The notes below the pieces were generated by a model. The model saw nothing but the letters and a program-made list of their open reading frames with translations. It was not told the DNA's origin and did not search any database. Positions 1 to 24,442 of a stretch of 64,000 nt of DNA are shown one piece after another. The stretch's first letter is position 1. The number at the start of each line of letters is the position of its first letter. The translations under genes and the position numbers were made by a program. Source of the stretch: Amphiscolops sp. MND2022 (taxonomy: Eukaryota); assembly GCA_964187785.1 (NCBI GenBank), contig OZ076409.1:72604001-72668000 (forward strand), read 5' to 3'.

Positions 1-1809
1 AAATTAGCGCCCCCCACCGGGTTCCATACCCCGGAAAATTTTTTTCTGGCCACACGGGCGACCGTTAGGGGGTCATTTTAGGGGTAAAATTCATATTGGG
101 CCACATAACTTTTTTTCTGTTGATTTAAAACTTTGGGACCCTGCTAAAAGTTTCTTGACCGTGTTGCAGGGGCCCCGGAGGTCCAAACCAAATTTTTCTA
201 TCTTGAAGCTATCTCCAAGTACCCCCCCGCTCAAACCGTTATTTTCCCGGAAACGCAGGTTTTTGACCCGGAAGGAGTCGTCTGAGCGCGGGGTCGTTAG
301 GTGATGTATTGGGGACGGCCTTGAGACGAAGTGGGGGACATGTAGTTTGCCAACCTCAATTTACCCCCCGGACGGGAAATGACCGTTATATGAGCGGGAA
401 AAATGCCCCCCTCCACGTTTTACCGCTATTTCCGGTGTGAAGGAGTGGGAGTAGCGCGTCGGGTGCCATATATCAAAAGTAGGTTTAAACAAGGACCTAT
501 CGGAAACATGTGGTTTGGGACCCCCTGGACCAACCCGTAAGCAGGAAATGGGGCTTCCGGCCCGTTTTTTTTACGGTTAAAAACGGAAAATGGGCATTGA
601 GGGGTAAATATCTCGTGAACGCGTGGAGCTACGGTGTCCTTCACTACTACAAGGTTTCATACCCATGATATGGTGCCTTCAGGGGGGCAAACAGATTTCC
701 GCTATCTATCACCGTTACCGACTTGGCCCCCCAGCCTAACCGCTATTTGACCGGAAATGTCAGTTTTTGAGCCCTAAGGGTCGGTCCGAGCGTGGCATCG
801 TTAGGTAACTTATTGTATTACTCAATGAGACTAGTTGGGGGATATAGTTTCAGTCACCCCCCGTTACCCCTTGGGACCGGAAATGACCGTTATGTGGGTA
901 AAATTGCAATTTTTGTACTTTTTGAAGGGCAATTAGGTGCGGAAGGAGTGGTAATAGGTGCTTGGACACTATTTGAGGTAAGGGAGGACGTGAGGCGAGC
1001 ATTCAGAAATAACCGTTATGATGACCCCAAAGTCCCCCTGGTACCGTAAACGACCGGAAATGGTCGAATTTTGTGTCTATTGAGTACAAATGTTTGGTGT
1101 TTTATGAATAAAAGTACCTATTAGGTGTTTCGACGGTTTGCAGTAGTGAACATAGTCATGAAACCTTGTGGGGGGTAACGGTATATAGCACCGGAATTCC
1201 GAACCGTTGGAGACAGGATATGTTTTTTGGTCTTAAAATGTCTTTCGGCGTACTTTTGTCGACTATTATGGACTATTTTTCAAAAATAAAGTTTTTCCAT
1301 ATAGTTTCAGAGACTCCGAAACCTCAAACAACATAACCGTTACCTTATGATAGCCTTTCAAGTTGGCCTGGTGTCAACTTGGAAGGGCTATCCTTCAAAA
1401 ATCGTTAATCAAGTGTGTTTTTGGGTATGTTTTTATCATTTTAGAATCAATTAGAGCTCCAAGAAAAGTTTGCCAACGACAAAAACTATGTCGTGATGAT
1501 TCCGTTATTAGAACGATGGTTAACAAAATGTTGATAAAGTTGATTTTTTACATTTCAAATGTGTCCTAAAAGCCAGAAAACCTCTTTACCAAAAAAATGG
1601 TATTGATTGAATTGTATATAACAGGTAATAAAAGTTCAAATTGATTATTACGTTTCATTATTCAAGCTAAAAATTCATAACATAGTTTAATTAACGTCAA
1701 CGCCACATACTTTACATCAACGCCCACTGTCTGTGGGCATGCCGAGGCATGCCCTTCGACGACGTATACCAAATACATACCCAAACGACGCCCGTACATG
1801 CCGGGCTAG
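1..1809 (+). mobile_element. U0, family A short cassette (5'-truncated by window), putative non-autonomous Helitron-like/rolling-circle element
   Basis: Aligns to 1810-3779 at an offset of ~1970 bp; ends with core (1729-1767), module and CTAG. Confidence 0.6.
1735..1754. promoter_or_regulatory. p53/p63/p73-type response element GGGCATGCCG-AGGCATGCCC (representative; identical at all 26 unit ends, last copy 62526-62545)
   Basis: Two abutting decamers match RRRCWWGYYY at 19 of 20 positions, both with CATG cores and no spacer. It is also a perfect 20-bp inverted repeat apart from the 2 central bases. Confidence 0.6.
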
Positions 1810-3779
1810 GTGCGGGGGGAAACCCCATCCCTTATCTTGGAGGATTCGGGTAGGGTCCTGAATCCGAGTTCAGTGCCGCCAGCTCTCAGTAGAAATCTGG
1901 GAAATTTTTTGCGATCTCGTGATCTAACCATAGGATTTTAAAGTTGGAGCGGCCCCCACCAGATTTTCCAAAGTTATTCGCCCCCCACCGGGTTCCAGCG
2001 TGATTGAAATATTTTGTCGGGGTACACGGGCGACCGTTAGGGGTCATTTTAGGGGTAAAATTTATATCCGGTCGCATAACTTTTTTCCTGTTGGTTTAAA
2101 ACTTTGGGACCCTGCTAAAAGTTTCTTGACCGTGTTGCGGTGGCTCCGGAGGTCCGAACCAAATTTTTCTATCTTGAAGCTATCTCCAAGTACCCCCCCG
2201 CCCAAACCGTTATTTTTCCGGAAACGCCGGTTTTTGACCCGGAAGGAGTCGTCTGAGCGCGGGGTCGTTAGGTGATGTTTTGGGGACGGCCTCGAGACGA
2301 AGCGGGGGATATATAGTTTGCCGACCCCAGTTTACCCCCCGCACGGGAAATGACCGTTATATGAGCGGGAAAAATGCCCCCCTCCACGTTTTACCGCTAT
2401 TTCCGGTGTGAAGGAGTGGGAGTAGCGCGTCGGGTGCCATATATCAAAAGTAGGTTTAGACAAGGATCTATCGGAAACATGTGGTTTGGGACCCCCTGGA
2501 CCAACCCGTTAGCAGGAAATGGGGCTTCCGGCCCGTTTTTTTACGGTTAAAAACGGAAAATGGGCATTGAGGGGTAAATATCTCGTGAACGCGTGGAGCT
2601 ACGGTGTCCTTCACTACTACAAGGTTTCATACCCATGATATGGTGCCTTCAGGGGGGCAAACAGATTTCCGCTATCTATCACCGTTACGGACTTGGCCCC
2701 CCAGCCTAACCGCTAAGTGACCGGAAATGTCACTTTTTGAGCCCAAAGGGTCGGTCCCAGCCAGGGAACGTTAGGTAACTTATTGTAGTACTCATTGAGA
2801 CGAGTTGGGGGACATAGTTTCAGTCACCCCCCGTTACCCCTTGGGACCGGAAATGACCGTTATGTGAGTAAATTTGCCATTTTTGTCCTATTTGAAGGGC
2901 ATTTAGATGCGGAAGGAGTGGTAATAGGTGCTTGGACACTATATGAGGTAAGGGAGGACGTGAGGCGAGCATTCGGACATAACCGTTATGTTGACCCTAA
3001 AGTCCCCCTGGTACCGTAAACGACCGGAAATGGTCAAATTTTGTGGCTATTGGGTACAAATGTTTGGTATTTTGTAAATAAAAGTATCTATTAGGTGTTT
3101 CGACGGTTTGCAGTAGTGAACATAGTCATGAAACCTTGTGGGGGGTAACGGTATATAGCACCGGAATTCCGAACCGTTGGAGACAGGATAGGTTTTTTGG
3201 TTTTAAAATGTCTTTCGGCGTACTTTTGTCGACTATTATGGACTATTTTTAAAAATTAAAGTTTTTCCATATAGTTTCAGAGACTCCGAAACCTCAACCA
3301 ACATAACCGTTACCTTATGATAGCCTTTCAAGTTGGCCTGGTGTCAACTTGGAAGGGCTATCCTTCAAAAATCGTTAATCAAGTGTGTTTTTGGGTATGT
3401 TTTTATCATTTTAGAATCAATTAAAGCTCCAAGAAAAGTTTGCCAACGACAAAAACTATGTCGTGATGATTCCGTTATTAGAATGATGGTTAACAAAATG
3501 TTGATAAAGTTGATTTTTTACATTTCAAATGTGTCCTAAAAGCCAGAAAACCTCTTTACCAAAAAAATGGTATTGATTGAATTGTATATAACAGGTAATA
3601 AAAGTTCAAATTGATTATTACGTTTCATTATTCAAGCTAAAACTTCATAACAAAGTTTAATTAACGTCAACGCCACACACTTTACATCAACGCCCACCGT
3701 CTGTGGGCATGCCGAGGCATGCCCTTCGACGACGTATACCAAATACATACCCAAACGACGCCCGTACATCCCGGGCTAG
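1810..3779 (+). mobile_element. U1, family A short cassette (1970 bp)
   Basis: Head GTGCGGGGGGAAACCCC; GC-richer body; ends with core, ACCAAATACATACCC module and CTAG. Confidence 0.6.
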
Positions 3780-5319
3780 GTGGGCGGGGGTAATTCCCCA
3801 ACAAAAATTACGGCCGGCGGGTTGGGTCCTGCCGGACGTCAAATAGCAAAGAATATCTAGTAGGAAACGGCGACACAGAATCGCGATTTTTAAATCTAAC
3901 CACAATTTTTTGGACTTGGAGTGCATGCGGCCCTGAAATGCCCATACGAATCGAAGTTCCTGCTGACGTTAAGCGATTGAAATAATATATAAAAAGTTAT
4001 GGCCCATTTTTCACTCACATAGAAGGGTAAAATGAGGAAATTTTTAACAAAGTCGCTGATAACTCAAAATGTGTTAATTTTTGGACATTGACTGTGAAAC
4101 AAGCTTGGAACCTTCATTTCGTGGCTGTGGCATTGCACTGAACACAAAAGATGTAAAGTTTTTACATTTTTTGAAAATTCGACATTTCTGAAATTTTTTT
4201 CACTACTATCAGTACCCCATATGTCAAAAACGCTTCAGAAAAAATTTTTTATTTGCTTTAAATTGGAAACCTTGGTATCCATGGTTTCTGTCGGAACCTA
4301 CTCGCAGCCAAACACTCAACAGTTTGCATCCAATGTGAAAATAAAATTTTTTTCGGGGTCATAAGCGTTTCACAAGGATTTCTCAACTTAGTATTATTTT
4401 ACAAAATGGTCATTTTGAACACAATATTTTCATCGAGGCTTGTCGGCTATAGCCTTAATGTTCTAGAACGGTCCCACTGGCAACGTAGGAACCATTTATA
4501 GTAATGGAAAGTAATAAAAAAATATTTTCACCCGGTCTTCAGTCATTTTTCAGTCATTCGGAACTTAACTTAGAAAAATTTCGACCAAAATACCCATTTT
4601 TTGTCAGGTCGAAAATTCAAATTCAGATTTTTAAGCAAAATTATTAACTCTGACGTAACCCATGGGGCCCATAATACTCAAAACAACGATTGACACTGGT
4701 ATCAATGGCTTCAATAACATATGAGTCGCGATAAGACGTTATTTTGAGCATTACGTCTCAATTGAGGTAAAGATCTCGCAAGCCAGTGATCACAGTGAAA
4801 TGTGATTTCATCAAAAATTTACTCTTTTTTGTCAATCATTATGTGCACAGAATGCGTAGGGTGCGTTTCAGCACTATAATGAGGTTTTTCAAGGCATCGA
4901 GTTGCTCAAGGGGTGGTATGAGACATTTTTGTCCCATATACTACTGTATTTTCCAAAATTTTTAGCCCAATATCTGGAAATACAAACTTGACAAAATACT
5001 TTCAACTACTTTATTCAAAGGTTACAATATAGATGAACACTGTGGTTGATCAGAAACTTTCATCTCTTTCGTTTTCGGAAATATTTCCCTTCGCATGTGT
5101 TACATTCATAGCAGAAAAAAAAATCGAAACTGAAAAATACGCTATTTTGCTAATATAGAATCGCAATGATTGTGCCTAAAAACTCTTTAAACACTTCTAA
5201 CGCAACCTTACGCACCCAAAATGATCAATAATGCTATTCACAATGGTGACATGTGCTCTTTCTACGATCCTGGCTGGACAAGGTTTGCATATTTTTCAAG
5301 TACCTGTCAGCTAAATCTT

Positions 5320-5367
5320 GTGATAGCCTTTTCAGTTGGCCTTGTGTCAACTTGGGAAGGCTATCAC
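5320..5367 (+). other. Conserved internal ~45-nt stem-loop of short units (representative; family A copy at 1349-1392)
   Basis: GTGATAGCCTT..AGTTGGC-CTTGT-GTCAACT..AAGGCTATCAC inverted repeat, ~400 bp before CTAG in A and B units. Confidence 0.85.
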
Positions 5368-5725
5368 ATCAAAAAACCATCAACAAAAATAATTTTTGTT
5401 TATTGGATCTTACAGTCGATACTTTTTTTCGTGATTCTATACTACCGTTAGTATATTTCCTCAGGTCACCTTACGATTGCATTCAGTCTTTGATAAAAAC
5501 CTATGAACTCAAAGTCACATTTATATATTTTTTTGCCAAAAAAACATCAAAAATATCCAAAAAATATAAAATAGAGTCTTTAGCATTTTTACGTTTCAAG
5601 TTTCCGCCGTTATTAGGCCAATCAACGTCCTACAGCCACGCTCTCTGTCATACTGTACAACGCCACATAGTGTTGCGACGCTCACGGTCTGTGGGCATGC
5701 CGAGGCATGCCCTTCGACGACGTAT

Positions 5726-5764
5726 GCCGAATACCGCGGGCCTACGCCCGCGCTCCCCGGCTAG
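5726..5764 (+). other. Helitron-like 3' terminus: GC hairpin CGCGGGC-CTAC-GCCCGCG, 8 nt, CTAG (representative of 13 copies)
   Basis: An 18-nt hairpin ending 12 nt before the end of CTAG matches the canonical Helitron hairpin + CTRR geometry. Confidence 0.65.
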
Positions 5765-7757
5765 GTGCGGGGGGGAAACCCCATCCCTTATCTTGGAGGA
5801 TTCGGGTAGGGTCCTGAATCCGAGTTCAGTGCCGCCAGCTCTCAGTAGAAATCTGGGCATTTTTTTGCGATCTCGTGATCTAACCATAGGATTTTAAAGT
5901 TGGAGCGGCCCCCACCAGATTTTCCAAAGTTATTCGCCCCCCACCGGGTTCCAGCGTGATTGAAATATTTTGACGGGGTACACGGGCGACCGTTAGGGGT
6001 CATTTTGGGGGTAAAATTTATATCCGGTCGCATAACTTTTTTCCTGTTGGATTAAAACTTTGGGACCCTGCTAAAAGTTTCTTGACCGTGTTGCGGGGGC
6101 TCCGGAGGTCCAAACCAAATTTTTCTATCTTGAAGCTATCTCCAAGTACCCCCCCGCCCAAACCGTTATTTTTCCGGAAACGCAGGTTTTTGACCCGGAA
6201 GGAGTCGTCTGAGCGCGGGGTCGTTAGGTGATGTATTGGGGACGGCCTTGAGACGAAGCGGGGGATATATAGTTTGCCGACCCCAGTTTACCCCCCGGAC
6301 GGGAAATGACCGTTATATGAGCGGGAAAAATGCCCCCCTCCACGTTTTACCGCTATTTCCGGTGTGAAGGAGTGGGAGTAGCGCTTCGGGTGCCATATAT
6401 CAAAAATAAGTTTAGACAAGGACCTATCGGAAACATGTAGTTTGGGACCCCCTGGACCAACCCGTTAGCGGGAAATGGGGCTTCCGCCTCCTTTTTTTAC
6501 TGCTAAAACCGTAAAATGGGCATTGAGGGGTAAATATCTCGTGAACGCGTGGAGCAATCGTGTCCATCACTACTACAAGGTTTCATACCCATGATATGGT
6601 GCCTTCAGGGGGGCAAACAGATTTCCGCTATCTATCACCGTTACCGACTTGGCCCCCCAGCCTAACCGCTATGTGACCGGAAATGTCACTTTTTGAGCCC
6701 AAAGGGTCGGTCCCAGCCGGGGAACGTTAGGTAACTTATTGTAGTACTCAATGAGACGAGTTGGGGGATATAGTTTCAGTCAACCCCCGTTACCCCTTGG
6801 GACCGGAAATGACCGTTATGTGGGTAAATTTGCAATTTTTATACTCTTTGAAGTGTATTTAGGTGCGGAAGGAGTGGTAATAGGTGCTTGGACACTATAT
6901 GATGTAATGGAGGTCGTGAGGAGAGCATTCGGAAATAACCGTTATGTTGACCCCAAAGTCCCCCTGGTACCGTTAACGACCGGAAATGGCCAAATTTTGT
7001 GTCTATTGGGTACAAATGTTTGGTATTTTATGGATAAAAGTACCTGGAAGGTGTTTTAAAGGCCTCCAGAAGTGAACATAGTCATGAAACCTTGTGGGGG
7101 GTAACGGTATATAGCATCGGAAGTCCAAACCGTTGGTCACAGAATAGGTTTTTTGGTTTCAATATGTCTTTAGGCATAGTTTTGTGGGTTGAATCGTCAT
7201 AATATCAACTAATACGGACTTTTTTCGGAAATAAAATTTTTTCACATTAGTTTCAGGGACCTCCAATGCTTCAGTCAAAATAACCGTTACATTTTGATAG
7301 CCTTTCAAGTTGACCTGGTGTCAACTTGGAAGGGCTATCCTTCTAAAATCGTTAATCAACAGTGTTTTTGGGTAGGTATATGTTGCATTAGTACCAATTA
7401 GAGCTTCATCAACAGTTTGCCAACGGCAAAAACGATGTCGTGATAATTCCGTTATAAAAATATTAGTTAACAAATTGTTTTCAAAGTTGATTTTTTCCAT
7501 TAAAAATGTGTCCTAATGCCACCAAATTGAATAAAATAATAAATGGTATTGACTAAAACTAAATAACAATGAAAAAGAAGATCAACATTTTTATTAGGTC
7601 TCATTATGGAAGCAGAAACCTCACGTTTTAACTTAATTAACGTCAACGCCACATACTTTACATCAACGCCCACCGTCTGTGGGCATGCCGAGGCATGCCC
7701 TTCGACGACGTATACCAAACAACCTCCATATCTACACCCACCCGCGGTAGCAGCTAG
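5765..7757 (+). mobile_element. U3, family A short cassette with divergent 3' part (1993 bp)
   Basis: Near-identical to U1 until ~7045, then more diverged; different terminal module. Confidence 0.6.
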
Positions 7758-9741
7758 GTGGGCGGGGGTAATTCCCCAACAAAAATTACGGCCGGCGGGT
7801 TGGGTCCTGCCGGACGTCAAATAGCAAAGAATATCTAGTAGGAAACGGCGACACAGAATCGCGATTTTTAAATCTAACCACAATTTTTTGGACTTGGAGT
7901 GCATGCGGTCCTGAAATGCCCATACGAATCGAAGTTCCTGCTGACGTTAAGCGATTGAAATAATATATAAAAAGTTATGGCCCATTTTTCACTCACATAG
8001 AAGGGTAAAATGAGGAAATTTTTAACAAAGTCGTTGATAACTCAAAATGTGTTAATTTTTGGACATTGACTGTGAAACAAGCTTGGAACCTTCATTTCGT
8101 GGCTGTGGCATTGCACTGAACACAAAACATGTAAAGTTTTTACATTTTTGAAAATTCGACATTTTTGAAATTTTTTTCACTACTATCAGTACCCTATATG
8201 TCAAAAACGCCTCAGAAAATAATTTTTATTTGCTTTAAATTGGAAACCTTGGTATCCATGGTTTCTGTCGGAACCTACTCGCAGCCAAACACCCAACAGT
8301 TTGCATCCAATGTGAAATAAAAAATTTTTTCGAGGTCATAAGCGTTTCACAAGGATTTCTCAACTTAGTTTCAATTTACAAATTGGTCATATTGAACACA
8401 ATATTTTCATCGAAGCTTGTCAGATACCGCCCTAATGCTCACTAATGGGCCTACTCGCAACGTTGGAACCGTTTATAGTAATAGAAAGTTTAAAAAAAAT
8501 ATTTTCACCCGGTCTTCAGTCATTTTTCAGTCATTCGGAACTTTACTTAGAAAAATTTCGACCAAAATACCCATTTTTTGTCAGGTCGAAAAATCAAATT
8601 CACATTTTTAAGCAAAATTATTAACTCTGACGTAACCCATGGGGCCCATAATACTCAAAACAACGATTGACACTGGTATCAATGGCTCCAATAACATATG
8701 AGTCGCGATAAGACGTTATTTTGAGCAATACGTCTCAATTGAGGTAAAGATCTCGCAATCCAGCGATCACTGTGAAATGTGATTTCATCAAAAATTTACT
8801 CATTTTTGTCAATCACTATGTGCAGAGAATGCGTAGGGTGCGTTTCAGCACTATAATGAGGTTTTTGAAGGCATCGAGTTGCTCAAGGGGTGGTATGAGA
8901 CATTTTTGTCCCATATACTACTGTATTTTCCAAATTTTTTAGCCCAATATCTGGAAATACAAATTTGACAAAATACTTTCAACTACTTTATTCAGAGGTT
9001 ACAATATAGATGAACACTGTGGTTGATCAGAAACTTTCATCTCTTTCGTTTTCCGAAATAATTTCCTTCATATGTGTTACATTTGTAGCAGAAAAAAAAA
9101 TCGATACTGAAAAATACGCTATTTTGCTAATATAGAATCGCAATGATTGTGCCTAAAAACTCTTTAAACACTTCTAACGCAACCTTACGCACCCAAAATG
9201 ATCGAAAATGCTATTCACAATGGTGACATGTGCTCTTTCAACGATCCTGACTGAACAATTTTCGCAAATTATTCAAGTACCTGTTAACTGAATCTCGTGA
9301 TAGCCTTTTAAGTTGGCCTTGTGTCAACTTGGGAAGGCTATCACATCAAAAAATTTGCAACAAAAATACATTTTGTTTATTGGAAATGACAGTCGATGTA
9401 TAATTTTGTGATTCTATACTACCGTTAGTACCTTCCATTAAGTCACCTGACGATTGCATTCAGTCTTTGATAAATACCAATGAACTCGAAGTCATATTTA
9501 TAAATTTTGTGCTAAAAATAAACATAAAAATTATCCAAATTATTTAAAATTGAGTCTTTACCGTTTTTGTTTTTCTTTTTCTACTGTTATTAGGCCCATC
9601 AACTTCCTACAGCCACGCTCTCTGTCATACCGTACAACGCCACATAGTGTTGCGACGTGCACAGTCTGTGGGCATGCCGAGGCATGCCCTTCGACGACGT
9701 ATGCCGAATACCGCGGGCCTACGCCCGCGCTCCCCGGCTAG
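7758..9741 (+). mobile_element. U4, family B short cassette (1984 bp, head B1)
   Basis: Bounded by CTAG|GTG junctions; homologous to U2. Confidence 0.6.
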
Positions 9742-11725
9742 GTGGGCGGGGGTAATTCCCCAACAAAAATTACGGCCGGCGGGTTGGGTCCTGCCGGACG
9801 TCAAATAGCAAAGAATATCTAGTAGGAAACGGCGACACAGAATCGCGATTTTTAAATCTAACCACAATTTTTTGGACTTGGAGTGCATGCGGCCCTGAAA
9901 TGTCCATACGAATCGAAGTTCCTGCTGACGTTAAGCGATTGAAATAATATATAAAAAGTTATGGCCCATTTTTCACTCACATAGAAGGGTAAAATGAGGA
10001 AATTTTTAACAAAGTCGCTGATAACTCAAAATGTGTTAATTTTTGGACATTGACTGTGAAACAAGCTTGGAACCTTCATTTCGTGGCGGTGGCATTGCAC
10101 TAAACACAAAAGATGTAAAGTTTTTACATTTTTTGAAAATTCGACTTTTTTGAAATTTTTTTCACTACTATCAGTACCCCATATGTCAAAAACGCCTCAG
10201 AAAAAAATTTTTATTTGCTTTAAATTGGAAACCTTGGTATTCATGGTTTCTGTCGGAACCTACTCGCAGCCAAACACCCAACAGTTTGCATCCAAAGTGA
10301 AAATAAAATTTTTTTCGGGGTCATAAGCGTTTCACAAGGATTTCTCAACTTAGTATTAATTTACAAAATGGTCATTTTGAACACAATATTTTCATCGAGG
10401 CATGTCGGCTATAGTCCTATTGCTCACGAACGGTCCTACTGGCAACGTAATAACCATTTATAGAAATGTAAAGTTATAAAAAAAATTTTTCACCCGGTCT
10501 TCAGTCATTTTTCAGTCATTCGGAACTTAACTTAGAAAAATTTCGACCAAAATATCCATTTTTTGTCAGGTCGAAAAATCAAATTCAGATTTTTAAGCAA
10601 AATTATTAACTCTGACGTAACCCATGGGGCCCATGATACTCAAAACAACGATTGACACTGGTATCAATGGCTCCAATAACATATGAGTCGCGATAAGACG
10701 TTATTTTGAGCATTACGTCTCAATTGAGGTAAAGATCTCGCAAGCCAGCGATCACTGTGAAATGTGATTTCATCAAAAATTTACTCTTTTTTGTCAATCA
10801 CTATGTGCACAGAATGCGTAGGGTGCGTTTCAGCACTATAATGAGGTTTTTGAAGGCATCGAGTTGCTCAAGGGGTGGTATGAGACATATTTGTCCCATA
10901 TACTACTGTATTTTCCAAAATTTTTAACCCAATATCTGGAAATACCAACTTGACAAAATACTTTCAACTACTTTATTCAAAGGTTACAATATGGATGAAC
11001 ACTGTGGTTGATCAGAAACTTTCATCTCTTTCGTTTTCCGAAATATTTCCTTTCGCATGTGTTACATTCGTAGCAGAAAAAAAAATCGAAACTGAAAAAT
11101 ACGCAATTTTGCTAATATAGAATCGCAATGATTGTGCCTAAAAACTCTTTAAACACTTCTAACGCAACCTTACGCACCCAAAATGATCGAAAATGCTATT
11201 CACAATGGTGACATGTGCTCTTTCTACGATCCTGGCTGGACAAGGTTTGCATATTTTTCAAGTACCTGTCAGCTAAATCTTGTGATAGCCTTTTCAGTTG
11301 GCCTTGTGTCAACTTGGGAAGGCTATCACATCAAAAAACCATCAACGAAAATAATTTTTGTCTATTGGATCTTACAGTCGATACTTTTTTTCGTGATTTT
11401 ATACTACCGTTAGTATATTTCATCAGGTCACCTTACGATTGCATTCAGTCTTTGATAAAAACCTATGAACTCAAAGTCACATTTATATATTTTTTTGCCA
11501 AAAAAAACATCCAAAATATCTAAAATATATAAAATAGAATCATTAACATTTTTACAGTTCAAGTTTCTGCCGTTATTAGGCCAATCAACGTCCTAGAGCC
11601 ACATCCTGTCATACTGTACAACGCCACAAAGTGTTGCGACGTGCACAGTCTGTGGGCATGCCGAGGCATGCCCTTCGACGACGTATGCCGAATACCGCGG
11701 GCCTACGCCCGCGCTCCCCGGCTAG
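9742..11725 (+). mobile_element. U5, family B short cassette (1984 bp, head B1)
   Basis: Bounded by CTAG|GTG junctions; homologous to U2. Confidence 0.6.
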
Positions 11726-13708
11726 GTGGGCGGGGGTAATTCCCCAACAAAAATTACGGCCGGCGGGTTGGGTCCTGCCGGACGTCAAATAGCAAAGAAT
11801 ATCTAGTAGGAAACGGCGACACAGAATCGCGATTTTTAAATCTAACCACAATTTTTTGGACTTGGAGTGCATGCGGCCCTGAAATGCCCATACGAATCGA
11901 AGTTCCTGCTGACGTTAAGCGATTGAAATAATATATAAAAAGTTATGGCCCATTTTTGGGTCACCGAGAAGGGCAAAATGAGGAAAATTTTAACTAAGTC
12001 GCTGATAACTCAAAATGTGTTAATTTTTGGACATTGACTGTGAAACAAGCTTGGAACCTTCATTTCGTGGCTGTGGCATTGGACTGAACACAAAAGATGT
12101 AAAGTTTTTACATTTTTTGAAAATTCGACATTTTTGATTTTTTTTTCACTAGTATCAGCACCCCATATGTCAAAAACGCCTCAGAAAAAAATTTTTATTT
12201 GCTTTAAATTGGAAACCTTGGTATCCATGGTTTCTGTCGGAACCTACTCGCAGCCAAACACCCAACAGTTTGCATCCAATGTGAAAATAAAAATTTTTTC
12301 TGGGTCATAAGCGTTTCACAAGGATTTCTCAACTTAGTATTAATTTACAAAATGGTCATTTTGAACACAATATTTTCATCGAGGCTTGTCGGCTATAGCC
12401 TTAATGTTCTAGAACGGTCCCACTGGCAACGTAGGAACCATTTATAGTAATGGAAAGTAATAAAAAAATATTTTCACCCGGTCTTCAGTCATTTTTCAGA
12501 CATTCGGAACTTATCTTAGAAAAATTTCGTCTCAAACACCCATTTTTTGACAGGTCGAAAAATCAAATTAGGATTTTTAAGCACAATTATTAACTCTGAC
12601 GTAACCCTTGGGGCCCATGATACTCAAAACAACGATTGACACTGTTATCAATGGCTCCAATAACATATGAGTCGCGATAAGACGTTATTTTGAGCAATAC
12701 GTCTCAATTGAGGTAAACATCTCGCAAGCCTGGGATCACAGTGGAATGTAAATTCATCAAAAGTTTACTCATTTTTGTCAATCACTATGTGCACAGAGTG
12801 CGTAGGGTGAGTTCCAGCACTATAATGAGGTTTTTGAAGGCATCGGGTTGCTCAAGGGGTGGTATGAGACATTTTTTTTCTATATACTACTGTATTTTCC
12901 AAAATGTTTAGCCCATTATCTGGAAAAACTAACTTGACAAAATACTTTCAATGATTTTATTCAAAGGCTACAATGTAGATGAACCCAGTGGTTGATCAGA
13001 AACTTTCATCTCTTTCGTTTTCCGAAATATTTCCCTTCGCATGTGTTACATTTGTAGCAGAAAAAAAATCGAAACTGAAAAATACGATATTTTGCTAATA
13101 TAGAATCGCAATGATTGTGTCTAAAAACTCTTTAAACACTTCTAACGCGACCTTACGCACCCAAAATGATCAAAAATGCTATTCACAATGGTGACATGTG
13201 CTCTTTCAACGATCCTGACTGAACAATTTTCGCAAATTATTCAAGTACCTGTTAACTGAATCTCGTGATAGCCTTTTAAGTTGGCCTTGTGTCAACTTGG
13301 GAAGGCTATCACATCAAAAAATTTTCAACAAAAATACTTTTTGTTTATTGGAAATGACAGTCGATATATAATTTCGTGATTCTATACTACCGTTAGTACC
13401 TTCCATTAAGTCACCTGACGATTGCTTTCAGTCTTTGATAAATACCTATGAACTCGAAGTCTTATTTATAAATTTTGTGCTAAAAATAAACATCAAAACT
13501 ATCCAAATTATTTAAAATTGAGTCTTTACCGTTTTTGTTTTTCTTTTTCTACTGTTATTAGGCTCATCAACTTCCCACAGCCACGCTCTCTGTCATTAGT
13601 ACAACGCCACATAGTGTTGCGACGTGCACGGTCTGTGGGCATGCCGAGGCATGCCCTTCGACGACGTATGCCGAATGCACTGCGGCGACGCCCGCAGTCC
13701 AAGGCTAG
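11726..13708 (+). mobile_element. U6, family B short cassette (1983 bp) with a unique terminal module
   Basis: Body nearly identical to U8; ends ACTGCGG-CGACGC-CCGCAGT-CCAAGG-CTAG. Confidence 0.6.
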
Positions 13709-14520
13709 GTGGGGGGGATATATCTCCACTTTTTTTGCGACCGCGGGTAGGGTCCTGTCGGGAGCTTCTATTTACCAAGCTTACGGCGCTATATACTAGA
13801 GAAAATTTTTCCGGCACCGAACTTTTTTTTGAACCATAGGATTTGTACCATTTTTTGCATGCGGCCCTAATTTGGGCATACAAGACGAAGTTCCTGCTGA
13901 CGTTAAGCGATGGTTTCATTGTGTAACGAGATATAGCCACTTTTTGGTGCGAATTTTGAGGTATTTTTGAGAAAAATTTTACAAACAGCTCGAATGCAAA
14001 AAATTGAAAAACTTGTGACAATCGACCTATCACTGGTTTAAACCTTCGATTCTTTGCCCTAGCAATGCACTAGACCCAAAAGATCTAAAACTTTTACATT
14101 TTCCAAAAATTTGACCAAATTGACTCGGGTTTCACTACTATATGTAACCAATGTGACAAAAACACCTCAGAAAAAAATTTTTATTTGCTTAAATTTAGAA
14201 ACCTTGGTATCCATGGTTTCTGTCGGAACCTACTCGCAGCCAAACACTCAACAGTTTGCATCCAATGTGAATTTAAATTTTTTTTCGAGGTCATAGGTGT
14301 TTCACAAGGATTTCACAACTTAGTTTCATATTACAAATTGGTCATTTTCAACATCATATTTCCATCGAGGCATGTCGGATAGAGTGTTATTGCTTACGAA
14401 CGGTCCTACTGGCAACGTGTTAACCATTTATAGAAATACAAAGTTATAAAAAAATTTTTTCACCCGTTCTTCCATCATTTTTCAGACATTCGGAACTTAT
14501 CTTAGAAAAATTTCGTCTCA

Positions 14521-15700
14521 AAAACCCATTTTTTGTCAGGTCGAAAACTCAAATTCAGCTTTTTAAGCACAATTATTAACTCTGACGTAACCAGTGGGGC
14601 CCATGATACTCAAAACAACGATTGGGGTTGGTACCATTGGCTCAAATAACATATGAGTCGCGATAAGACGTTATTTTTAGCCATACGTCTCAATTGAGGT
14701 AAACATCTCGCAAGCCAGGGATCTCTGTGAAATGTGATTTCATCAAAAAGTTACCCATTTTCGCCAATTACTATGTGCACAGAGTGCGTAGGGTGAGTTT
14801 CAGCACTATAATGAGGTTTTTGAAGGATTCGGGTTGCTCAAAGGGTGGTATGAGACATTTTTTTCCCATATACTACTGTATTTTCCAAAAATTTTAGCCC
14901 ATTATCTGGAAAAACTAACTTGACAAAATACTTTCAGTTACTCTATTCGAAGCTTAGAATATAGATGAACACTGTGGTTGATCAGAAACTATTAACTATT
15001 TTGTTTTTAGAAAAAAACTGCCTTGCATGTGTTACATTAGTGGCAGGAAAAATACCAGTAGCTCCAAAAATCAAAAATTTGGACGGACAGACTTCCAATG
15101 ATGCAAAACAAAAACGTTTCAACAACTTCTGACGCCACTTTTTTTACCCAAGAGGTTCGAAAACACCATTAACAATGCTGACATTCGCAATAAATAAGAT
15201 CGAGGTCTATTTACTAACACTTAGGTTTTAAATTTTTTTCTCGGAAACCCATTATTGTCAGGTCGCAAATTCAAATTTGGTTTTGGAAGCAATACTTTTC
15301 ACTCTGAAGCAAACCGTTGGGCCCAAAATACTCAACAACAACAAAAAGACTATCACCATATGCTCTAATAACATATGAGATGCGACTGTATGTTTTTAAC
15401 ACAATAACTCTCATTCTGAAGTAAACATGTTGAAAGCCTTGAATCACAGTGAGAAGTGATTTCATCAAAAACTATTTCTTTTTCGTCAATCACTAAATAC
15501 ACAGAACCCGTTGTGTTAGTTTCAGTAGTGAAATGAGGTTCTACCGTAATATCGGTTGCTCAAGGTGTTGTATAAGGCAAAAACTTCCTCTTTTCTACTA
15601 ACTTCTTCAAATATTTCAACCCTTTGTCACACGAAGTTAATATTCAAAATCTCTTTGAATTGTTTCTTAAGGTTGTGGTGAATTGTTAGAACAATTACTA
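14521..15700 (+). repeat. Old ~722-bp-period direct duplication inside long cassette U7 (also present in U11, U12 and U19)
   Basis: CCCATTTTTTGTCAGGTCG (~14525) recurs as CCCATTATTGTCAGGTCG (~15248); GTGATTTCATCAAAAA at ~14734 and ~15456; GGTTGCTCAA at ~14832 and ~15554. Confidence 0.85.
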
Positions 15701-15946
15701 TGATCGAAGAATGCTAGTATTGGTGTTTGGACCATGTCCGGATGAACAAATCGCAAAATCAAGAAAAAATTGTTTCCTTTTTTGGTTATTTTGGCAGTAC
15801 TAAAAATGTTAGCTGATAAATAATTTTTTCGAAGGCACCATTGGATTCCGCTCAAAAAGTTGATTATAAGACATGTGTAATAACCCCGTATCTTTTCAAT
15901 TTAAATAAATTTAAAAAGCAAACTTTTTGACGAAAATCCTAAAAAT

Positions 15947-17284
15947 CATACCATTTCCTAAAAAATTTCAAATGCACTCCATTTGACGTATAAGAATAGC
16001 ACAGAAAACTATCATATACCGATCAACTTTACTCCCATTGTAGACTATTAGAATTTTGTTTTGATTGAATTTTGAAGAATATTAAAAAATTTTGAACCCT
16101 CCAAAAATGGACCAAAATTACACGAAAAAATTGACCTTAAAATTTTAAAATGTCAAAAAATCATCAAAACCACAACTTCTTGGGGTTCTATCAACTCCAC
16201 GTGGTCCACAGAGTACGCTAAAACAGGTTTTACCCGTTTTTGAGCAATATGTGAAAAAGCCGACATTTTTGGGAAAGAAAAACATACCATTTCCTAAAAA
16301 ATTTCAAATGCACGCCATTTGCCGTATGAGAATAGCACAGAAAACTATCACATACCGATCAACTCTACTTTCATTGTAGATGATTAGAAGTTAGTTTAAA
16401 TGAAAATTAGACGGATAATAAAAAAATATAAATCCTCCAAAAGTGGGCAAAAATTACACGAAAAAATTGTCCTTAAAATATTAAAATGTCCAAAAATCAT
16501 CAAAACCACAGCTTCTTGGGGTTCTATCAACTCCACATGGTCCACAGAGTACGCTAAAACAGGTTTTACACGTTTTTGAGCAATATGTGGAAAAGCCGAC
16601 ATTTTTGGGAAAGAAAAACATAACATTTCCTAAAAAAATTCACATGCACGCCATTTGGCGTATAAGAATAGCACAGAAAACTATCATATACCGATCAACT
16701 CTACTCCTATTGTAGATTATTAGAACTTTGTTTTGAATGAATTTTGAAGGATAATAAAAAATTTTGAACCCTCCGAAAATGGGCTAAAATTACACGAAAA
16801 AAGTGACCTTAAAATTTTAAAATGTCTAAAAATCATCAAAACCACAGCTTCTTGAGGTTCTATCAACTCCACATGGCCCACAGAGTATGCCAAACCAGGT
16901 TTTGCGCGTTTTTGAGCAAAATTTAGGAAAGCCGATTTTTTTGAGGAAGAAAAACATATCATTTCCTAAAAAACTTCAAATGCACGCCATTTGGCGTATA
17001 ACAATAGCACAGAAAACTATCACATACCAATCAACTCTACTCTTTTTGTAGATTACCAGAAGTTTGCTTAGAATAACTTTTGATGAATATTTATAAATTT
17101 TAAACCCTCCTAATATGGGCCAAAATCACACGGAAAAATTGACCCTAAGTATTAAAATGTCAGATATTCATCAAAACCCCAGCTTCTTGGGGTTCTATCA
17201 TTTCCATATGACTTTCAGTGTATACCAAACAAGTTATTAACATTGGGCGATAATTAAAAAGACCAATTTTATTCTGAAGAAAAC
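15947..17284 (+). repeat. Internal tandem repeat, 4 x 336 bp (U7)
   Basis: CATACCATTTCCTAAAAA-type starts at 15947, 16283, 16619 and 16955; the last copy is degenerate. Confidence 0.95.
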
Positions 17285-17501
17285 CATAATATGTTCAATA
17301 TAAGAAGTGAATCATTCCACATATATACCCTGTCTAATATTCTAAATTAGCAAAAAAATATATACTTGATGTTTTTTGAATGTGAGCTTCATAAAAGGTT
17401 GAGATGTGATAATACGTAAATGGAATCCAAGTTTCATCGAAAAGTCAATGGAATACGTCCAATCAACTTCAATCTTAACAATTCGATAACAAAAAACACT
17501 T

Positions 17502-17543
17502 AAGTACATTCCATCTCCCTATCGGGGAGATGAGAATGTACTT
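17502..17543 (+). other. Internal ~40-nt stem-loop of long units (also 28239-28279, 32996-33038, 49698-49738)
   Basis: AAGTACATTC-CATCTCCC..GGGAGATG-A-GAATGTACTT inverted repeat. Confidence 0.85.
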
Positions 17544-18476
17544 TTCTAAAACTAAAAACTTAGATCTTTCTATCTTTTGTAACACTTACTGTAACAGCTG
17601 AAATGATGAAAGGATAATTATTCTTCTAATAACTTCAAGATTTTTTGCTTCACCTTTTATTTCTGCAGAACAAAACCATAAGACATACATATTTTTCGCA
17701 GTTAAGTTCGACTGTATTACCCAGTGAACAAAGGTATGACAGGAAGAATACAAGTTGTCTCAAAACTTTCCCGCCTTCCAAAATCATGAAACGTCTACAC
17801 AACCAAGATAGTAAAGGAATGAATGTGGAATGCATCATTTTAGTTAAAATAAATAACGTGTAGAACTTACCTTTATCTGAAGATGATGTTGATTTATGAT
17901 CTTTAGAGGATAGTTCAATTTTTGACCATAATAGTGCGAAACTAATTATTATATGAATAATGGCGTGGAAAGCGTTCAGAAATTGCAGTATTTTCGATTC
18001 GAGCATGTATGCGTGGGTTCCTTTGGTGGCAGTAGCTTAGTGTACATGATGGAAGTTTTCGATCTATTATGATAAAATTTACTCACAAGTCTTTGTTTTT
18101 CCTATTTTTTTATGCCATTAAGTACATTCATTCTATCCCCTTCTCTGGGAATGTACGTTTGCCAAATGACTGTCATCCAAATTTTGCATTCGCGAAGAGT
18201 TTAAATACATAAACACGTCTTTAGCGTTTCCAAATCACAACCGATTAACATTTTTAAAAATTTTTTTTATGAAAATTGATAATTTGTTTTGATTTTGGTA
18301 TCTTCTACTTTTATCATCCATCATAACAAGCACGTTACCATGTCTCTCGCTTGTCTTCATTTTACAACGACACATAGCGTTCCGACTCCCACCGTCTGTG
18401 GGCATGCCGAGGCATGCCCTTCGACGACGTATGCCAACTACTTTTTATATCTACACCCGATTGCGGTAGCGGCTAG

Positions 18477-20457
18477 GTGGGCGGGGGTAATTCCCCTTCA
18501 AAAAATTCGGCCGGCGGGTTGGGTCCTGCCGGACGTCAAATAGCAGAAAATACCTATTAGGAAACGGCGACACAAAACGGCGATTTTTAAATCTAACCAC
18601 AATTTTTTGGACTTGGAGTGCATGCGGCCCTGAAATGCCCATACGAATCGAAGTTCCTGCTGACGTTAAGCGATTGAAATAATATATAAAAAGTTATGGC
18701 CCATTTTTGGGTCACCGAGAAGGGCAAAATGAGGAAAATTTTAACTAAGTCGCTGATAACTCAAAATGTGTTAATTTTTGGACATTGACTGTGAAACAAG
18801 CTTGGAACCTTCATTTCGTGGCTGTGGCATTGCACTGAACACAAAAGATGTAAAGTTTTCACATTTTTTGAAAATTCGACATTTTTGAATTTTTTTTCAC
18901 TAGTATCAGCACCCCATATGTCAAAAACGCCTCAGAAAAAAATTTTTATCTGCTTTAAATTGGAAACCTTGGTATCCATGGTTTCTGTCGGAACCTACTC
19001 GCAGCCAAACACCCAACAGTTTGCATCCAATGTGAAAATAAAAATTTTTTCTGGGTCATAAGCGTTTCACAAGGATTTCTCAACTTAGTATTAATTTACA
19101 AAATGGTCATTTTGAACACAAAATTTTCATCGAGGCTTGTCGGCTATAGGCTTAATGTTCTAGAACGGTCCCACTGGCAACGTAGGAACCATTTATAGTA
19201 ATTGAAAGTTATAAAAAAATTTTTCACCCGTTCTTCAGTCATTTTTCAGACATTCGGAACTTATCTTAGAAAAATTTCGTCTCAAACACCCATTTTTTGA
19301 CAGGTCGAAAAATCAAATTAGGATTTTTAAGCAAAATTATTAACTCTGACGTAACCCATGGGGCCCATGATACTCAAAACAACGATTGACACTGGTATCA
19401 ATGGCTCCAATAACATATGAGTCGCGATAAGACGTTATTTTGAGCAATACGTCTCAATTGAGGTAAACATCTCGCAAGCCTGGGATCACAGTGAAATGTA
19501 AATTCATCAAAAATTTACTCATTTTTGTCAATCACTATGTGCACAGAGTGCGTAGGGTGAGTTCCAGCACTATAATGAGGTTTTTGAAGGCATCGGGTTG
19601 CTCTAGGGGTGGTATGAGACATTTTTTTCTATATACTACTGTATTTTCCAAAACTTTTAGCCCATTATCTGGAAAAACTAACTTGACAAAATACTTTCAA
19701 TGATTTTATTCAAAGGCTACAATGTAGATGAACCCAGTGGTTGATCAGAAACTTTCATCTCTTTCGTTTTCCGAAATATTTCCCTTCGCATGTGTTACAT
19801 TTGTAGCAGAAAAAAAATCGAAACTGAAAAATACGCTATTTTGCTAATATAGAATCGCAATGATTGTGCCTAAAAACTCTTTAAACACTTCTAACGCGAC
19901 CTTACGCACCCAAAATGATCAAAAATGCTATTCACAATGGTGACATGTGCTCTTTCAACGATCCTGACTGAACAATTTTCGCAAATTATTCAAGTACCTG
20001 TTAACTGAATCTCGTGATAGCCTTTTAAGTTGGCCTTGTGTCAACTTGGGAAGGCTATCACATCAAAAAATTTTCAACAAAAATACTTTTTGTTTATTGG
20101 AAATGACAGTCGATATATAATTTCGTGATTCTATACTACCGTTAGTACCTTCCATTAAGTTACCTGATGATTGCTTTCAGTCTTTGATAAATACCTATGA
20201 ACTCGAAGTCTTATTTATAAATTTTGTGCTAAAAATAACCATCAAAACTATCCAAATTATTTAAAATTGAGTCTTTACCGTTTTTGTTTTTCTTTTTCTA
20301 CTGTTATTAGGCTCATCAACTTCCTACAGCCACGCTCTCTGTCATTAGTACAACGCCACATAGTGTTGCGACGTGCACAGTCTGTGGGCATGCCGAGGCA
20401 TGCCCTTCGACGACGTATGCCGAATACCGCGGGCCTACGCCCGCGCTCCCCGGCTAG
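18477..20457 (+). mobile_element. U8, family B short cassette (1981 bp)
   Basis: Bounded by CTAG|GTG junctions; body matches U6. Confidence 0.6.
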
Positions 20458-22446
20458 GTGGGCGGGGGTAATTCCCCAACAAAAATTACGGCCGGCGGGT
20501 TGGGTCCTGCCGGACGTTCAAATAGCGCGAAGCATCTAGTAGAAAACAAGGAGTCCTGAAACAGCGATTTTAAAATTGAACCGTTAGAATTTGGTTTTAG
20601 ATTGCATGCGGCCCTAAAATCCCCATACGAATGGAAGTTCCTGCTGGCGTTAAGCGATTGAAATAATATATAAAAAGTTATGGCCCATTTTTGGGTCACC
20701 GAGAAGGTCAAAATGAAGAAAATTTTAACTAAATTGCTGATAACTCAAAATGTGTTAATTTTTGGACTTTGACTGTGAAACAAGCTTGGAACCTTCATTT
20801 CGTGTCTGTGGCATTGCACTGAACACAAAAGATGTAAAGTTTTCACATTTTTTGAAAATTCGACATTTTTGAATTTTTTTTCACTACTATCAGTACACTA
20901 TATGTCAAAAACACCTCTGAAAATTTTTTTTTATTGCTTAAATTTAGCAACCTCGGTATCCATGGTTTCCGTCAGTACCTACTCGCTGCCAAACACTCAA
21001 CAGTTTGCATCCAATGTGAAAATAAAATTATTTTCGAGGTCTTAGGTGTTTCACAAGGATTTCTCAACTTAGTATCAATTTACAAATTGGTCATTTTGAA
21101 CACATTATTTTCATCGAAGCGTGTCATATACCGCCCTAATGCTCACGAACGGGCCTACTGGCAACGTTGGAACCATTTATAGTAATAAAAAGTTTTAAAA
21201 AAATTTTTTCACCCCGTCTTCAGTCATTTTACACACTTTCGGAACTTAACTTAGAAAAATTTCAACCAAAAACCCATTTTTTGTCAAGTCGAAAATTCAA
21301 CTTCAGCTTTTTAAGCAAAATAAATAAATCTGACATAACCAGTGGGGCCCATGAAACTCAAAACCACGATTGAGACTGGTATCAATGGCTCCAATAACAT
21401 ATGAGTCGCGATAAGACGCTATTTTGAGCAAAACATCTCAATTGAGGTAAAGATCTCGCAAGCCAGCGATCACTGTGAAATGTGATTTCATCAAAAATTT
21501 ACTCTTTTTTGTCAATCACTATGTGCACAGAATGCGTAGGGTGCGTTTCAGCACTATAATGAGGTTTTTGAAGGCATCGAGTTGCTCAAGGGGTGGTATG
21601 AGACATTTTTGTCCCATATACTACTGTAGTTTCCAAAAATTTTACCCCAATATCTGGAAATACAAACTTGACAAAATACTTTCAATTACTTTATTCAAAG
21701 GTTACAATATAGATGAACACTGTGGTTGATAAGAAACTTTCATCTCTTTCGTTTTCGGAAATATTTCCGTTCGCATGTGTTACATTCATAGCAGAAAAAA
21801 AAATCGAAACTGAAAAATATGCTATTTTGCTGATATAGAATCGCAATGATTGTGCCTAAAAACTCTTTAAACACTTCTAACGCAACCTTACGCACCCAAA
21901 ATGATCGAAAATGCTATTCACAATGGTGACATGTGCTCTTTCTACGATCCTGGCTGGACAAGGTTTGCATATTTTTCAAGTACCTGTCAGCTAAATCTTG
22001 TGATAGCCTTTTCAGTTGGCCTTGTGTCAACTTGGGAAGGCTATCACATCAAAAAACCATCAACAAAAATAATTTTTGTTTATTGGATCTTACAGTCGAT
22101 ACTTTTTTTCGTGATTCTATACTACCGTTAGTATATTTCATCAGGTCACCTTACGATTGCATTCAGTCTTTGATAAAAACCTATGAACTCAAAGTCACAT
22201 TTATATAGTTTTTTGCCAGAAAATAACATCAAAAATATCTAAAATATATAAAATAGAGTCTTTAACATTTTTACGTTTCAAGTTTTTGCCGTTATTAGAC
22301 CAATCAACGTCCTAGAGCCACATCCTGCCACATACTGTACAACGCCACATAGTGTTGCGACGTGCACAGTCTGTGGGCATGCCGAGGCATGCCCTTCGAC
22401 GACGTATGCCGAATACCGCGGGCCTACGCCCGCGCTCCCCGGCTAG
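20458..22446 (+). mobile_element. U9, family B short cassette, subtype B2 (1989 bp)
   Basis: Head ...GGACGTTCAAATAGCGCGAAGC; near-identical to U16, U20 and U25. Confidence 0.6.
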
Positions 22447-24442
22447 GTGCGCGGGGTTATTCCCCCCGTTTGTCCCCGGCCGGCGGGTAGGGTCCTGACG
22501 GCCGTCCTTAATCATGAAGCTTGCTGTTTAGCGCAAAAAGCCCACAAAAACGCCGATTTTAAAAACTAACCATTAGAATTTGTTCGTAGATTGCATGCGG
22601 CCCTAAAATTTGCATACGAATGGAAGTTCCTGCTGACGTTAAGCGATAGAAACATTATAAAAAAAGTTATGGCCAATTTTTGGTCCCCATTAGATGTAAA
22701 AATGATGAAATTTTTCATAAAAGGGCAAATATCTCAAAATGCAATAATTTTTGGACATTGACTGTGAAACAAGCTTGGAACCTTCATTTCGTGGCTGTGG
22801 CATTGCACTGAACACAAAAGATGTAAAGTTTTTACATTTTTTGAAAATTTGACATTTTTGAATTTTTTTTCACTACTATCAGTACCATATATGTCAAAAA
22901 CACCTCAGAAAAAAATTTTTATTTGCTTTAACTTGGAAACCTTGGTATCCATGGTTTCTGTCGGAACCTACTCGGAGCCAAACACTCAACAGTTTCCATC
23001 CAATGTGAAAATAAATTTTTTTTCGAGGTTATAGGTGTATCACAAGGATTTCACAACTTAGTATTAATTTACAAAATGGTCATTTTCAACATCATATTTT
23101 CATCGAGGCATGTCGGATATAGTCCTAATGCTCACGACCGGTCCTACTGGCAACGTATTACCCATTTATAGAAATATAAAGTTTTAAAAAAATATTTTCA
23201 CCCGATCTTCAGTCATTTTTCAGTCATTCGGAACTTAACTTAGAAAAATTTCGACCAAAAAACCCATTTTTGTCAGGTCGAAAATTCAAATTCAGCTTTT
23301 TAAGCAAAATTATTAAATCTGACGTAACCAGTGGGGCCAATGAAACTCAAAACCGCAATAGACACTGGTATCAATGGCTCCAATAACTTATGAGTCGCGA
23401 TAAGACGTTATTTTGAGCAATACGTCTCAATTGAGGTAAACATCTCGCAAGCCAGGGATCACTGTGAAAAGTGATTTCATCAAAAATTTACTCATTTTCG
23501 TCAATCACCATGTGCACAGAATGCGTAGGGTGCGTTTCAGCACTATAATGAGGTTTTTGAAGGCGTCGGGTTGTTCAAGGGGTGGTATGAGACAATTTTT
23601 TCCCATATACTACTGTATTTTCCAAAACTTTTTGCCATTTATCTGGAAAAACTAATTTGACAAAATACTTTCAATTACTTTATTCGAAGGTTACAGTATA
23701 GATGAACCCTGTGGTTGATCAGAAACTTTCATCTCTTTTGTTTTCCGAAATAATTCCCTTCGAATGTGTTACTTTTGTAGCCGGGTAAATAACCGAAACT
23801 GAAAAATACGCAATTTTGCTGAGATAGAATCCTAATGGTTGCACCCAAAATCTCTTTAAATATTTCTAACGCGACCTTACGGACCTAAAATGATTGAAAA
23901 TGTCATTCACAATGCTGACATGTGCTCTTTCTACGATCCTGGCTGGACAAGTGTCGCATATTTTTCAAGTACCTGTTAACTGAATTTTGTGATAGCCTTT
24001 CAAGTTGGCCTTGTGTCAACTTGGGAAGGCTGTCACATCAAAAAACTATCAACAAAATTACGTTTCGTTAATGTAAGAATGCTGTCAATGATTAATTTAG
24101 TGATTCTATCCTACCGTTGGTACCTTCCATCAGATCAGATAACGATTGCATTCAGTCTTTGATAAAAACCTATGAACTCGAATACATTTTTCTGTTTTTT
24201 TTTCTAACAGAAAAGTAAAAAATAATAAATTTTTTATTAATAACACCTTTCAGTACTATTACTTTCACACACAATCGTTACCGTGATCAGCCACACCCAC
24301 CCCGTGCGGCCTCGCCCTGTTAGTAGTGCAACGCCACATATAAACATCAACGCCCACAGTCTGTGGGCATGCCGAGGCATGCCCTTCGACGACGTATGGC
24401 AAATTTAGCGTTGCCCGCACTCTGGAGTGCGGTAGCAGCTAG
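22447..24442 (+). mobile_element. U10, divergent family B short cassette (1996 bp)
   Basis: Unique head GTGCGCGGGGTTATTCCCC and unique tail; same core and CTAG. Confidence 0.6.

Follow-up and report, generated by a model that had tools for sequence, protein, structure and literature searches.

Canonical Helitrons (HLE1; Helraiser) resemble the elements described here in having a RepHel protein with HUH, two-tyrosine, and Pif1 helicase signatures, a 3' hairpin with CTRR, no target duplication, and reported head-to-tail arrays (PMC5876387, PMC11417382). The Helraiser terminator is a hairpin near the end, and Helitrons use double-stranded circles as intermediates (PMC5876387). Subtelomeric tandem Helitron arrays in Hydractinia were assigned to HLE1 (PMC11934779). 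HLE1 elements differ from those analyzed here in their 5' TC and A|T target, replaced here by GTG and CTNG|NT, and in that the present arrays mix unrelated families. The Rep core retrieved no Helraiser chain from the PDB at an E value of ≤1.

Members of HLE2 (Helitron2, Helentron, FoHeli, and proto-Helentron) share with the present elements a large RepHel and hairpins at both ends. As here, FoHeli1/2 have an extended target preference, TNAT|A (PMC5148889), and CTAG is the terminus of proto-Helentron; capture of a GIY-YIG domain is reported for one HLE2 family (PMC11417382). HLE2 differs in its terminal inverted repeats, which are short and asymmetric, and in its T|T target, whereas the present elements show no covariation between the start and the subterminal box and no T|T. 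The HLE2 marker DUF6570 was absent from three array RepHels and 13 relatives, and the array RepHels gave no AP-endonuclease match. Elements of the IS91 family are HUH elements that insert 3' of a tetranucleotide (CTTG or GTTC) resembling their own end, without duplication. They are bacterial and have no fused helicase, and their likeness to the array elements may be taken as analogy only.

A third HLE clade, the Paramecium Helitrons, has a right end (CCAA) resembling its presumed target (C4A2 repeats) and forms oriented clusters with internal satellites, as here, but targets telomeric repeats rather than its own junction (PMC13085455). p53 consensus sequences inside mobile elements are described for EnSpm-N6_DR, LTR10, MER61, and L1 (PMC3485254, PMC7778262), and EnSpm-N6_DR is a nonautonomous DNA transposon with functional p53 sites in 210 copies (PMC3485254). 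These are dispersed single families, whereas here approximately 5,000 near-identical putative sites are arrayed, one per unit, across divergent rolling-circle lineages. Transposon p53 sites and tandem Helitrons are each already known; the part of the literature covered by our searches contained no description of this lineage, of insertion into a junction mimic, or of Helitrons with a p53 site.

Array organization and the 39-bp core

The window, i.e., the whole 64,000-nucleotide stretch analyzed (1..64000), is a head-to-tail mixed array of nonautonomous Helitron-like elements on the + strand, 25 complete and 2 cut by the window edges, and neighboring sequence shows that the array runs on past both sides. 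Family A is represented at 1810..3779 and by a second complete element at 5765-7757, and family B by 19 complete elements of 1981-1998 bp, for example, at 3780..5764. Four long elements (13709..18476, 24443..29205, 29206..33971, and 45902..50664, all on the + strand, as are those of families A and B) contain internal tandem repeats at 15942-17200, 26674-28023, 31438-32704, and 48133-49482, respectively, with approximately four copies of a 336-bp unit in each element. An internal inverted repeat about 400 bp before the 3' end (1349..1392, + strand) is common to families A and B and the long elements; in family B, it is the second-longest invariant run (22 bp). No frame of >215 codons was found in the window, and positions 1-20,000, the part scanned for known RNAs, gave no Rfam match. 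Elements and RepHel frames are clustered at C1:70.4-76.5 Mb, C2:102-103.9 Mb, and C3:2.4-3.9 Mb. The C1 cluster lies on one strand and contains the window, and those on C2 and C3 are near contig ends; these large clusters are possible centromeric or subtelomeric arrays.

The 39-bp core has 26 + strand matches in the window and none in 100 shuffles. The first copy lies at 1729..1767, followed by 3699..3737, 5687..5725, 7675..7713, 9664..9702, 11648..11686, 13631..13669, 18394..18432, 20380..20418, 22369..22407, 24359..24397, 29123..29161, 33888..33926, 35878..35916, 37862..37900, 39854..39892, 41842..41880, 43826..43864, 45818..45856, 50582..50620, 52576..52614, 54567..54605, 56556..56594, 58545..58583, 60532..60570, and 62520..62558. 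As the initial annotation had claimed, 25 copies are exact and the copy at 52576..52614 has one T>C outside the palindrome. Its view that families A and B are otherwise very different also holds, the core region, the internal inverted repeat, and a short left-end box being all that they have in common. The 19 family B elements have a mean pairwise identity of 89%, with 58% of columns invariant, and the core alone stays at ≤1 variable column per 39 (median, 15). It also contains the longest invariant run in family B (36, the next being 22), and no 12-mer found in each of the 25 complete elements comes from anywhere else. The invariance of the core is genuine and was not produced by recent amplification.

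Within the core, the 20-mer at 1735..1754 (no strand assigned) is an inverted repeat with 9-bp arms, and the core hairpin was stable in every fold tried. The flanks, described at first as variable on both sides, are hypervariable farther out, but the core itself belongs to a conserved island of approximately 55 bp, with a semiconserved CAACGCCCAC box before it (1718..1727, + strand; 0.67-0.93 majority in 42 upstream clusters) and GCCAAAT after it.

Element ends and insertion target

Family identity switches sharply at GCTAG|GTG in 26/26 copies. The core, previously placed at every unit end, is subterminal in all of these copies, the junction lying 39-45 bp further 3'. At the first junction, the element ends in a terminal hairpin, whose sequence differs between copies, and a 3' CTAG (1790..1809, + strand). 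The next element begins with GTG and a stem-loop with a conserved GGG(T/G)(A/T)GGG box (1810..1865, + strand); the covarying stem of this left end (1842-1865) has both-sided changes at four of seven pairs around a fixed loop. The end-to-start junction CTAG|GTG (1806..1812, + strand) would be both the nick site and the preferred target. The segment between core and CTAG (1768-1809 in the window, and its equivalents) occurs in 86 forms and is hypervariable even within families; 58 of the 86 fold at -3 kcal/mol or better, and terminal segments are common across families. The 3' ends of elements are CTAG or CTGG.

A search of the host genome (1.07 Gb) for element ends without a following G returned 57 places, of which 30 were examined. 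The two bases after the end were AT in 20, TT in 7, and others in 3, a few of these places being mutated array junctions. Host left flanks before the first element (n = 8) were CTAG (3), CTTG (3), CTCG (1), and GTCC (1), i.e., seven of eight end in CTNG. With the flanks rejoined, two of the eight cases gave alignments to paralogous empty sites that span the junction, the other six having no paralogue among the compared sequences. A 17-bp gap in one empty-site comparison was a stretch of host DNA that separates one insertion from another, both lying behind CTAG. From these flank counts and empty sites, elements with GTG...CTAG (or CTGG) ends insert at CTNG|NT, mostly before NT, without target duplication. 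A CTAG target-site duplication was rejected because CTTG and CTCG are also found at left flanks and the empty sites are uninterrupted, and a subterminal inverted repeat pairing CGCCCAC with the element start was rejected for lack of covariation. One insertion, at C2:16.31 Mb, is in tRNA-Ser/Ala-like sequence, detected by ARAGORN only at a relaxed threshold and after flank rejoining.

The units in the window are almost certainly nonautonomous Helitron-like elements of the form GTG...CTAG; their Helitron-like nature had gone unrecognized in the initial annotation. The CTNG|NT target looks like a mimic of the junction that the elements themselves form, CTAG|GT. That junction would then itself be a preferred target, and new copies would land behind old ones, likely building the mixed arrays.

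Autonomous RepHel partners

A search with Helitron_like_N returned a group of weak matches in frames of ~2,300-2,600 codons. The group is concentrated at C1:71-76 Mb, where it shares the strand of the window, and one further RepHel match lies within a core array at C1:24 Mb. These partners are whole elements, 12-17 kb long, whose ends are those of the window units. The 12,016-bp element at C1:74.33 Mb, for example, has a 2350-codon frame with PF14214 and PF05970 over the cut-off, the same ends, and the core. The proteins, 2,350-2,600 aa long, belong to a divergent lineage and carry Rep and Pif1 domains with HUH and YxxKY/YxxSY motifs, and GIY-YIG was found at the C terminus of four of seven fragments scanned. 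The N-terminal part gave only a lead to UCH (0.75), and the second frame often present in these elements gave an OB-fold/RPA-like match at 0.88-0.91, also a lead only.

Four RepHel lineages are ~30% identical to each other and can be aligned with the other Helitrons of the genome in the helicase only, at 23-27% for its DUF6570 element. Relatives number 598 at an E value of ≤0.001 among 1.8 billion representatives, including named hagfish and tunicate proteins, and 8 of 13 scanned contain GIY-YIG. Among metagenome loci, 38 were fetched and those of ≥4 kb scanned: the left-end GGGGAGGGTCCC box also occurs upstream of the frame in two near-identical loci, and one p53 site with two mismatches was found, inside a frame, most right ends being missing from these loci. 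In a Rep tree with one HLE1-type family and one DUF6570 element, both from the host genome, as the outgroup, 25 array-type rows fell on one side of a branch (SH-aLRT, 99), although this is a quick tree that carries a long-branch warning. By termini, target, and domain markers, the RepHel group is neither HLE1 nor HLE2 as these are defined in PMC11417382, and the unclassified clusters of HELIANO could include it.

The genome also has a DUF6570 (HLE2-type, C1:34.71 Mb) and a 1320-codon (HLE1-type, C13:53.14 Mb) Helitron family, both unlinked to the arrays. A tyrosine recombinase was rejected as the partner, the search giving four weak matches with none listed at an array position, as was a Replitron (Y1 Rep without helicase), because the partner has Y2 and a helicase. 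The PF21859 search was blank, but its control was likewise silent. Three tyrosine-recombinase-like matches 993 bp apart, all in one 1055-codon frame, lie at C3:2083091-2085292.

Genome-wide variation and distribution of the core

The core flanks around any 20 bases matched 4,994 places in the host genome (control, 3), with the canonical RGGCATGCCGAGGCATGCCY at 4,859 and the four C/G positions kept at 4,965. The 135 noncanonical copies divide into 29 over the four C/G positions and 106 over the other 16, an even spread of ~7 per position, the pattern expected if dead copies decay. Only within the window is the core invariant; across the genome it comes in three common haplotypes, with two 20-mers between them, and it is missing from some sister families of the same arrays. 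The 20-mers, G...C and A...T, account for 143 and 22 of 180 contexts examined, and the inner 18 bp are unchanged throughout amplified copies. An A...C hybrid occurs once genome-wide, and neither hybrid is among the 165 canonical copies examined.

In the variant check suggested earlier, no amplified family or variant had a broken CATG, and the single variant to have amplified exchanges G·C for A·T as a pair, at both palindrome ends together. The check does not separate p53 binding from a hairpin: in this variant, pairing and consensus both survive, and there are next to no hybrids. At least four upstream families are found with either 20-mer haplotype and almost the same tail, which suggests that blocks were converted between families. 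Two unrelated old copies (C4:35082454 and C12:51116272) have C>T in both half-sites (CATGTC), so that the consensus is kept and pairing is broken.

Of 21 autonomous copies, 7 had no right end in the stretch examined and were left unlabeled. The core is present at the first downstream end of 8 of the other 14 (6 of 11 lineages) and absent from 6 (5 lineages), if the first junction after each frame is that frame's own end. On a tree of short C-terminal fragments, the core label changes four times, at least two of which are forced, and is not clustered beyond shuffles (157/500). Core-less families are mobile in the same arrays, and their ends contain no consensus site within three mismatches, save chance matches without the C/G cores. 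The core is dispensable for mobility and distinct from the terminator. Its absence from 5 of 11 lineages and the existence of a separate, freely varying terminal hairpin weaken the alternative offered by the initial annotation, in which the core was the nick site or terminator of the mobilizing enzyme. Patchy occurrence among divergent lineages suggests a module that likely spread sideways by short block conversion.

All 140 in-array copies retain both half-sites, whereas one decamer is lost in 9 of 38 array-end or dispersed copies (Fisher P = 2.6e-7), a contrast that is confounded by age, the copies with half-site loss being older, and that includes one duplicated pair. The full two-half-site form seems to be selected. 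A single decamer was rejected as the ancestral form; deletion is preferred, though not proven, because both halves are exact slippage-deletion products of each haplotype.

The p53 consensus and the host p53 family

Scored on the IUPAC consensus RRRCWWGYYY x2 (as in PMC3485254), both haplotypes consist of two decamers that fit 19/20 positions with a spacer of 0, and the match first noticed in the 20-mer is upheld. A random hairpin with 9-bp arms would fit 19/20 with a probability of 3-4e-4, or <1e-4 with CATG cores. Several hairpins per element and many recognizable motifs make a coincidental match likelier, at an estimated few percent. Outside the cores, no 19/20-type site was found in ~1.0 Mb of partly overlapping sequence examined. 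p53 is reported to prefer inverted-repeat targets (PMC6888028), and binding by p53 and folding into a hairpin can both hold.

PF00870 has 24 matches in the host genome, and a host p53-family gene, on which the initial interpretation depended, is best represented at C4:13.056 Mb, where PF00870 scores 141 and 53 bits on two exons. The encoded domain matches p63/p73 structures at an E value of ~1e-42. Its zinc ligands, L3 loop, H2, and RICACPxRDR recognition motif are aligned and intact; an L1 exon with a K120-equivalent residue was not found at this locus. A tandem run of ~15 broken p53-like fragments, spaced 1.2-1.9 kb beside kinase-like fragments, lies at C2:2333777-2360487, and a second, divergent type of p53-like gene, related to the C2 fragments, occurs at C26:3615-5600, where the exons are open, and at C13:23839448. 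An element-encoded p53-like domain was rejected, as neither the core nor the left-end box was found near the p53-like copies on C2, C13, and C26.

Proposed function of the core

The p53 reading of the initial annotation is supported in part, through the consensus match, the host gene, the apparent selection for two half-sites, and the intact CATG cores of amplified variants. We give a probability of roughly 50% to the reading, drawn from sequence, that the core is an optional right-end module and a putative binding site for a host p53/p63/p73-type protein that benefits multiplication of the element. A host p53-family tetramer would bind the double-stranded core, which in arrays and circular intermediates would sit 39-59 bp upstream of a left end, and there could open the origin or drive transcription. 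The effect would be exerted in cells in which the p53-family protein is active (germline, stem cells, or after DNA damage), and the advantage gained by carriers in such cells may have led to sideways spread among lineages. An unchanged core among transposases that are only ~30% identical fits a constant host reader better than it fits diverging transposases. Against p53 binding, the core-to-end distance varies over 39-59 bp with no clear helical phase, and there is no p53-shaped tolerance, since noncanonical copies are spread evenly over C/G and other positions. The invariance is stricter than p53 needs, covering p53-tolerated positions and flanks over ~55 bp, and the paired outer change is a coupling that p53 would not need and that also fits a hairpin or block conversion.

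Somewhat improbable, but the strongest of the alternatives, is a hairpin or cruciform of the displaced strand that RepHel or its OB-fold partner would read sequence specifically, as a pause or pretermination signal, the p53 match being incidental. The hairpin is stable in all folds tried, the outer pair changes on both sides together with hybrids nearly absent, the flanks are conserved as much as the palindrome, and Helitron right ends carry hairpins (PMC5876387). Against such a signal, the core is absent from 5/11 lineages, carried unchanged by transposases of 30% identity, and accompanied by a separate terminal hairpin. The inner stem, unlike other stems, has no compensatory change in amplified families, and the two old copies with C>T in both halves, which are only two and not amplified, break pairing and keep the consensus.

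Frequent short conversion or template switching could instead have kept the core uniform as a homology island with little function of its own. Consistent with this explanation, terminal segments are common across families, and at least four upstream families carry either haplotype with almost no change in the terminal segment. It is nevertheless unlikely, as it leaves the fit to the p53 consensus unexplained, the island persists between hypervariable flanks, and half-site loss is common in dispersed copies but found in 0/140 array copies. Most improbable is that a p53-family protein binds but represses the elements, or that the ~5,000 sites serve the host as a sink or structural platform: the presence of at least 4,859 sites, most of them within large arrays, and the restraint of some retroelements by p53 (Wylie 2016, cited in PMC7778262) would suit it, but a repressive site should vanish from amplifying lineages, where it is kept, rather than from dispersed copies, where it is lost.

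The core is real, apparently selected, and set within an unusual Helitron system, with a p53 function an even bet. A broader scenario, in which an undescribed RepHel-GIY-YIG Helitron clade with an own-junction-mimic target and megabase mixed arrays captured a p53-family site that swept sideways and ties amplification to host p53/p63 state, is tentative and, taken whole, rather doubtful.

Implications and possible origin of the core

The transposon p53 sites known so far are mostly treated as a source of material for host regulation or as something that repression can act on. In the present elements, a p53-type site appears to be kept in ~5,000 copies for the element's own benefit and to have moved between transposase lineages that differ as much as those of separate phyla; if bound, it would make it possible to test directly whether p53-family activity can be exploited by a transposon. 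Aside from p53, GTG...CTAG ends, the self-mimicking CTNG|NT target, and the fused GIY-YIG define a Helitron group outside HLE1 and HLE2 by termini, with relatives in hagfish, a tunicate, and metagenomes. Insertion at a junction mimic would offer an uncomplicated path by which transposons become macrosatellite arrays of mixed composition.

The start of the core (1721-1740 in the window, CAC.GTCT-GTGGGC) resembles a core-less end (CACGTCTAG) joined to an element start, and the core module may derive from an old read-through junction. A GTCTGTG remnant is retained in a core-less element with a 2411-codon frame.
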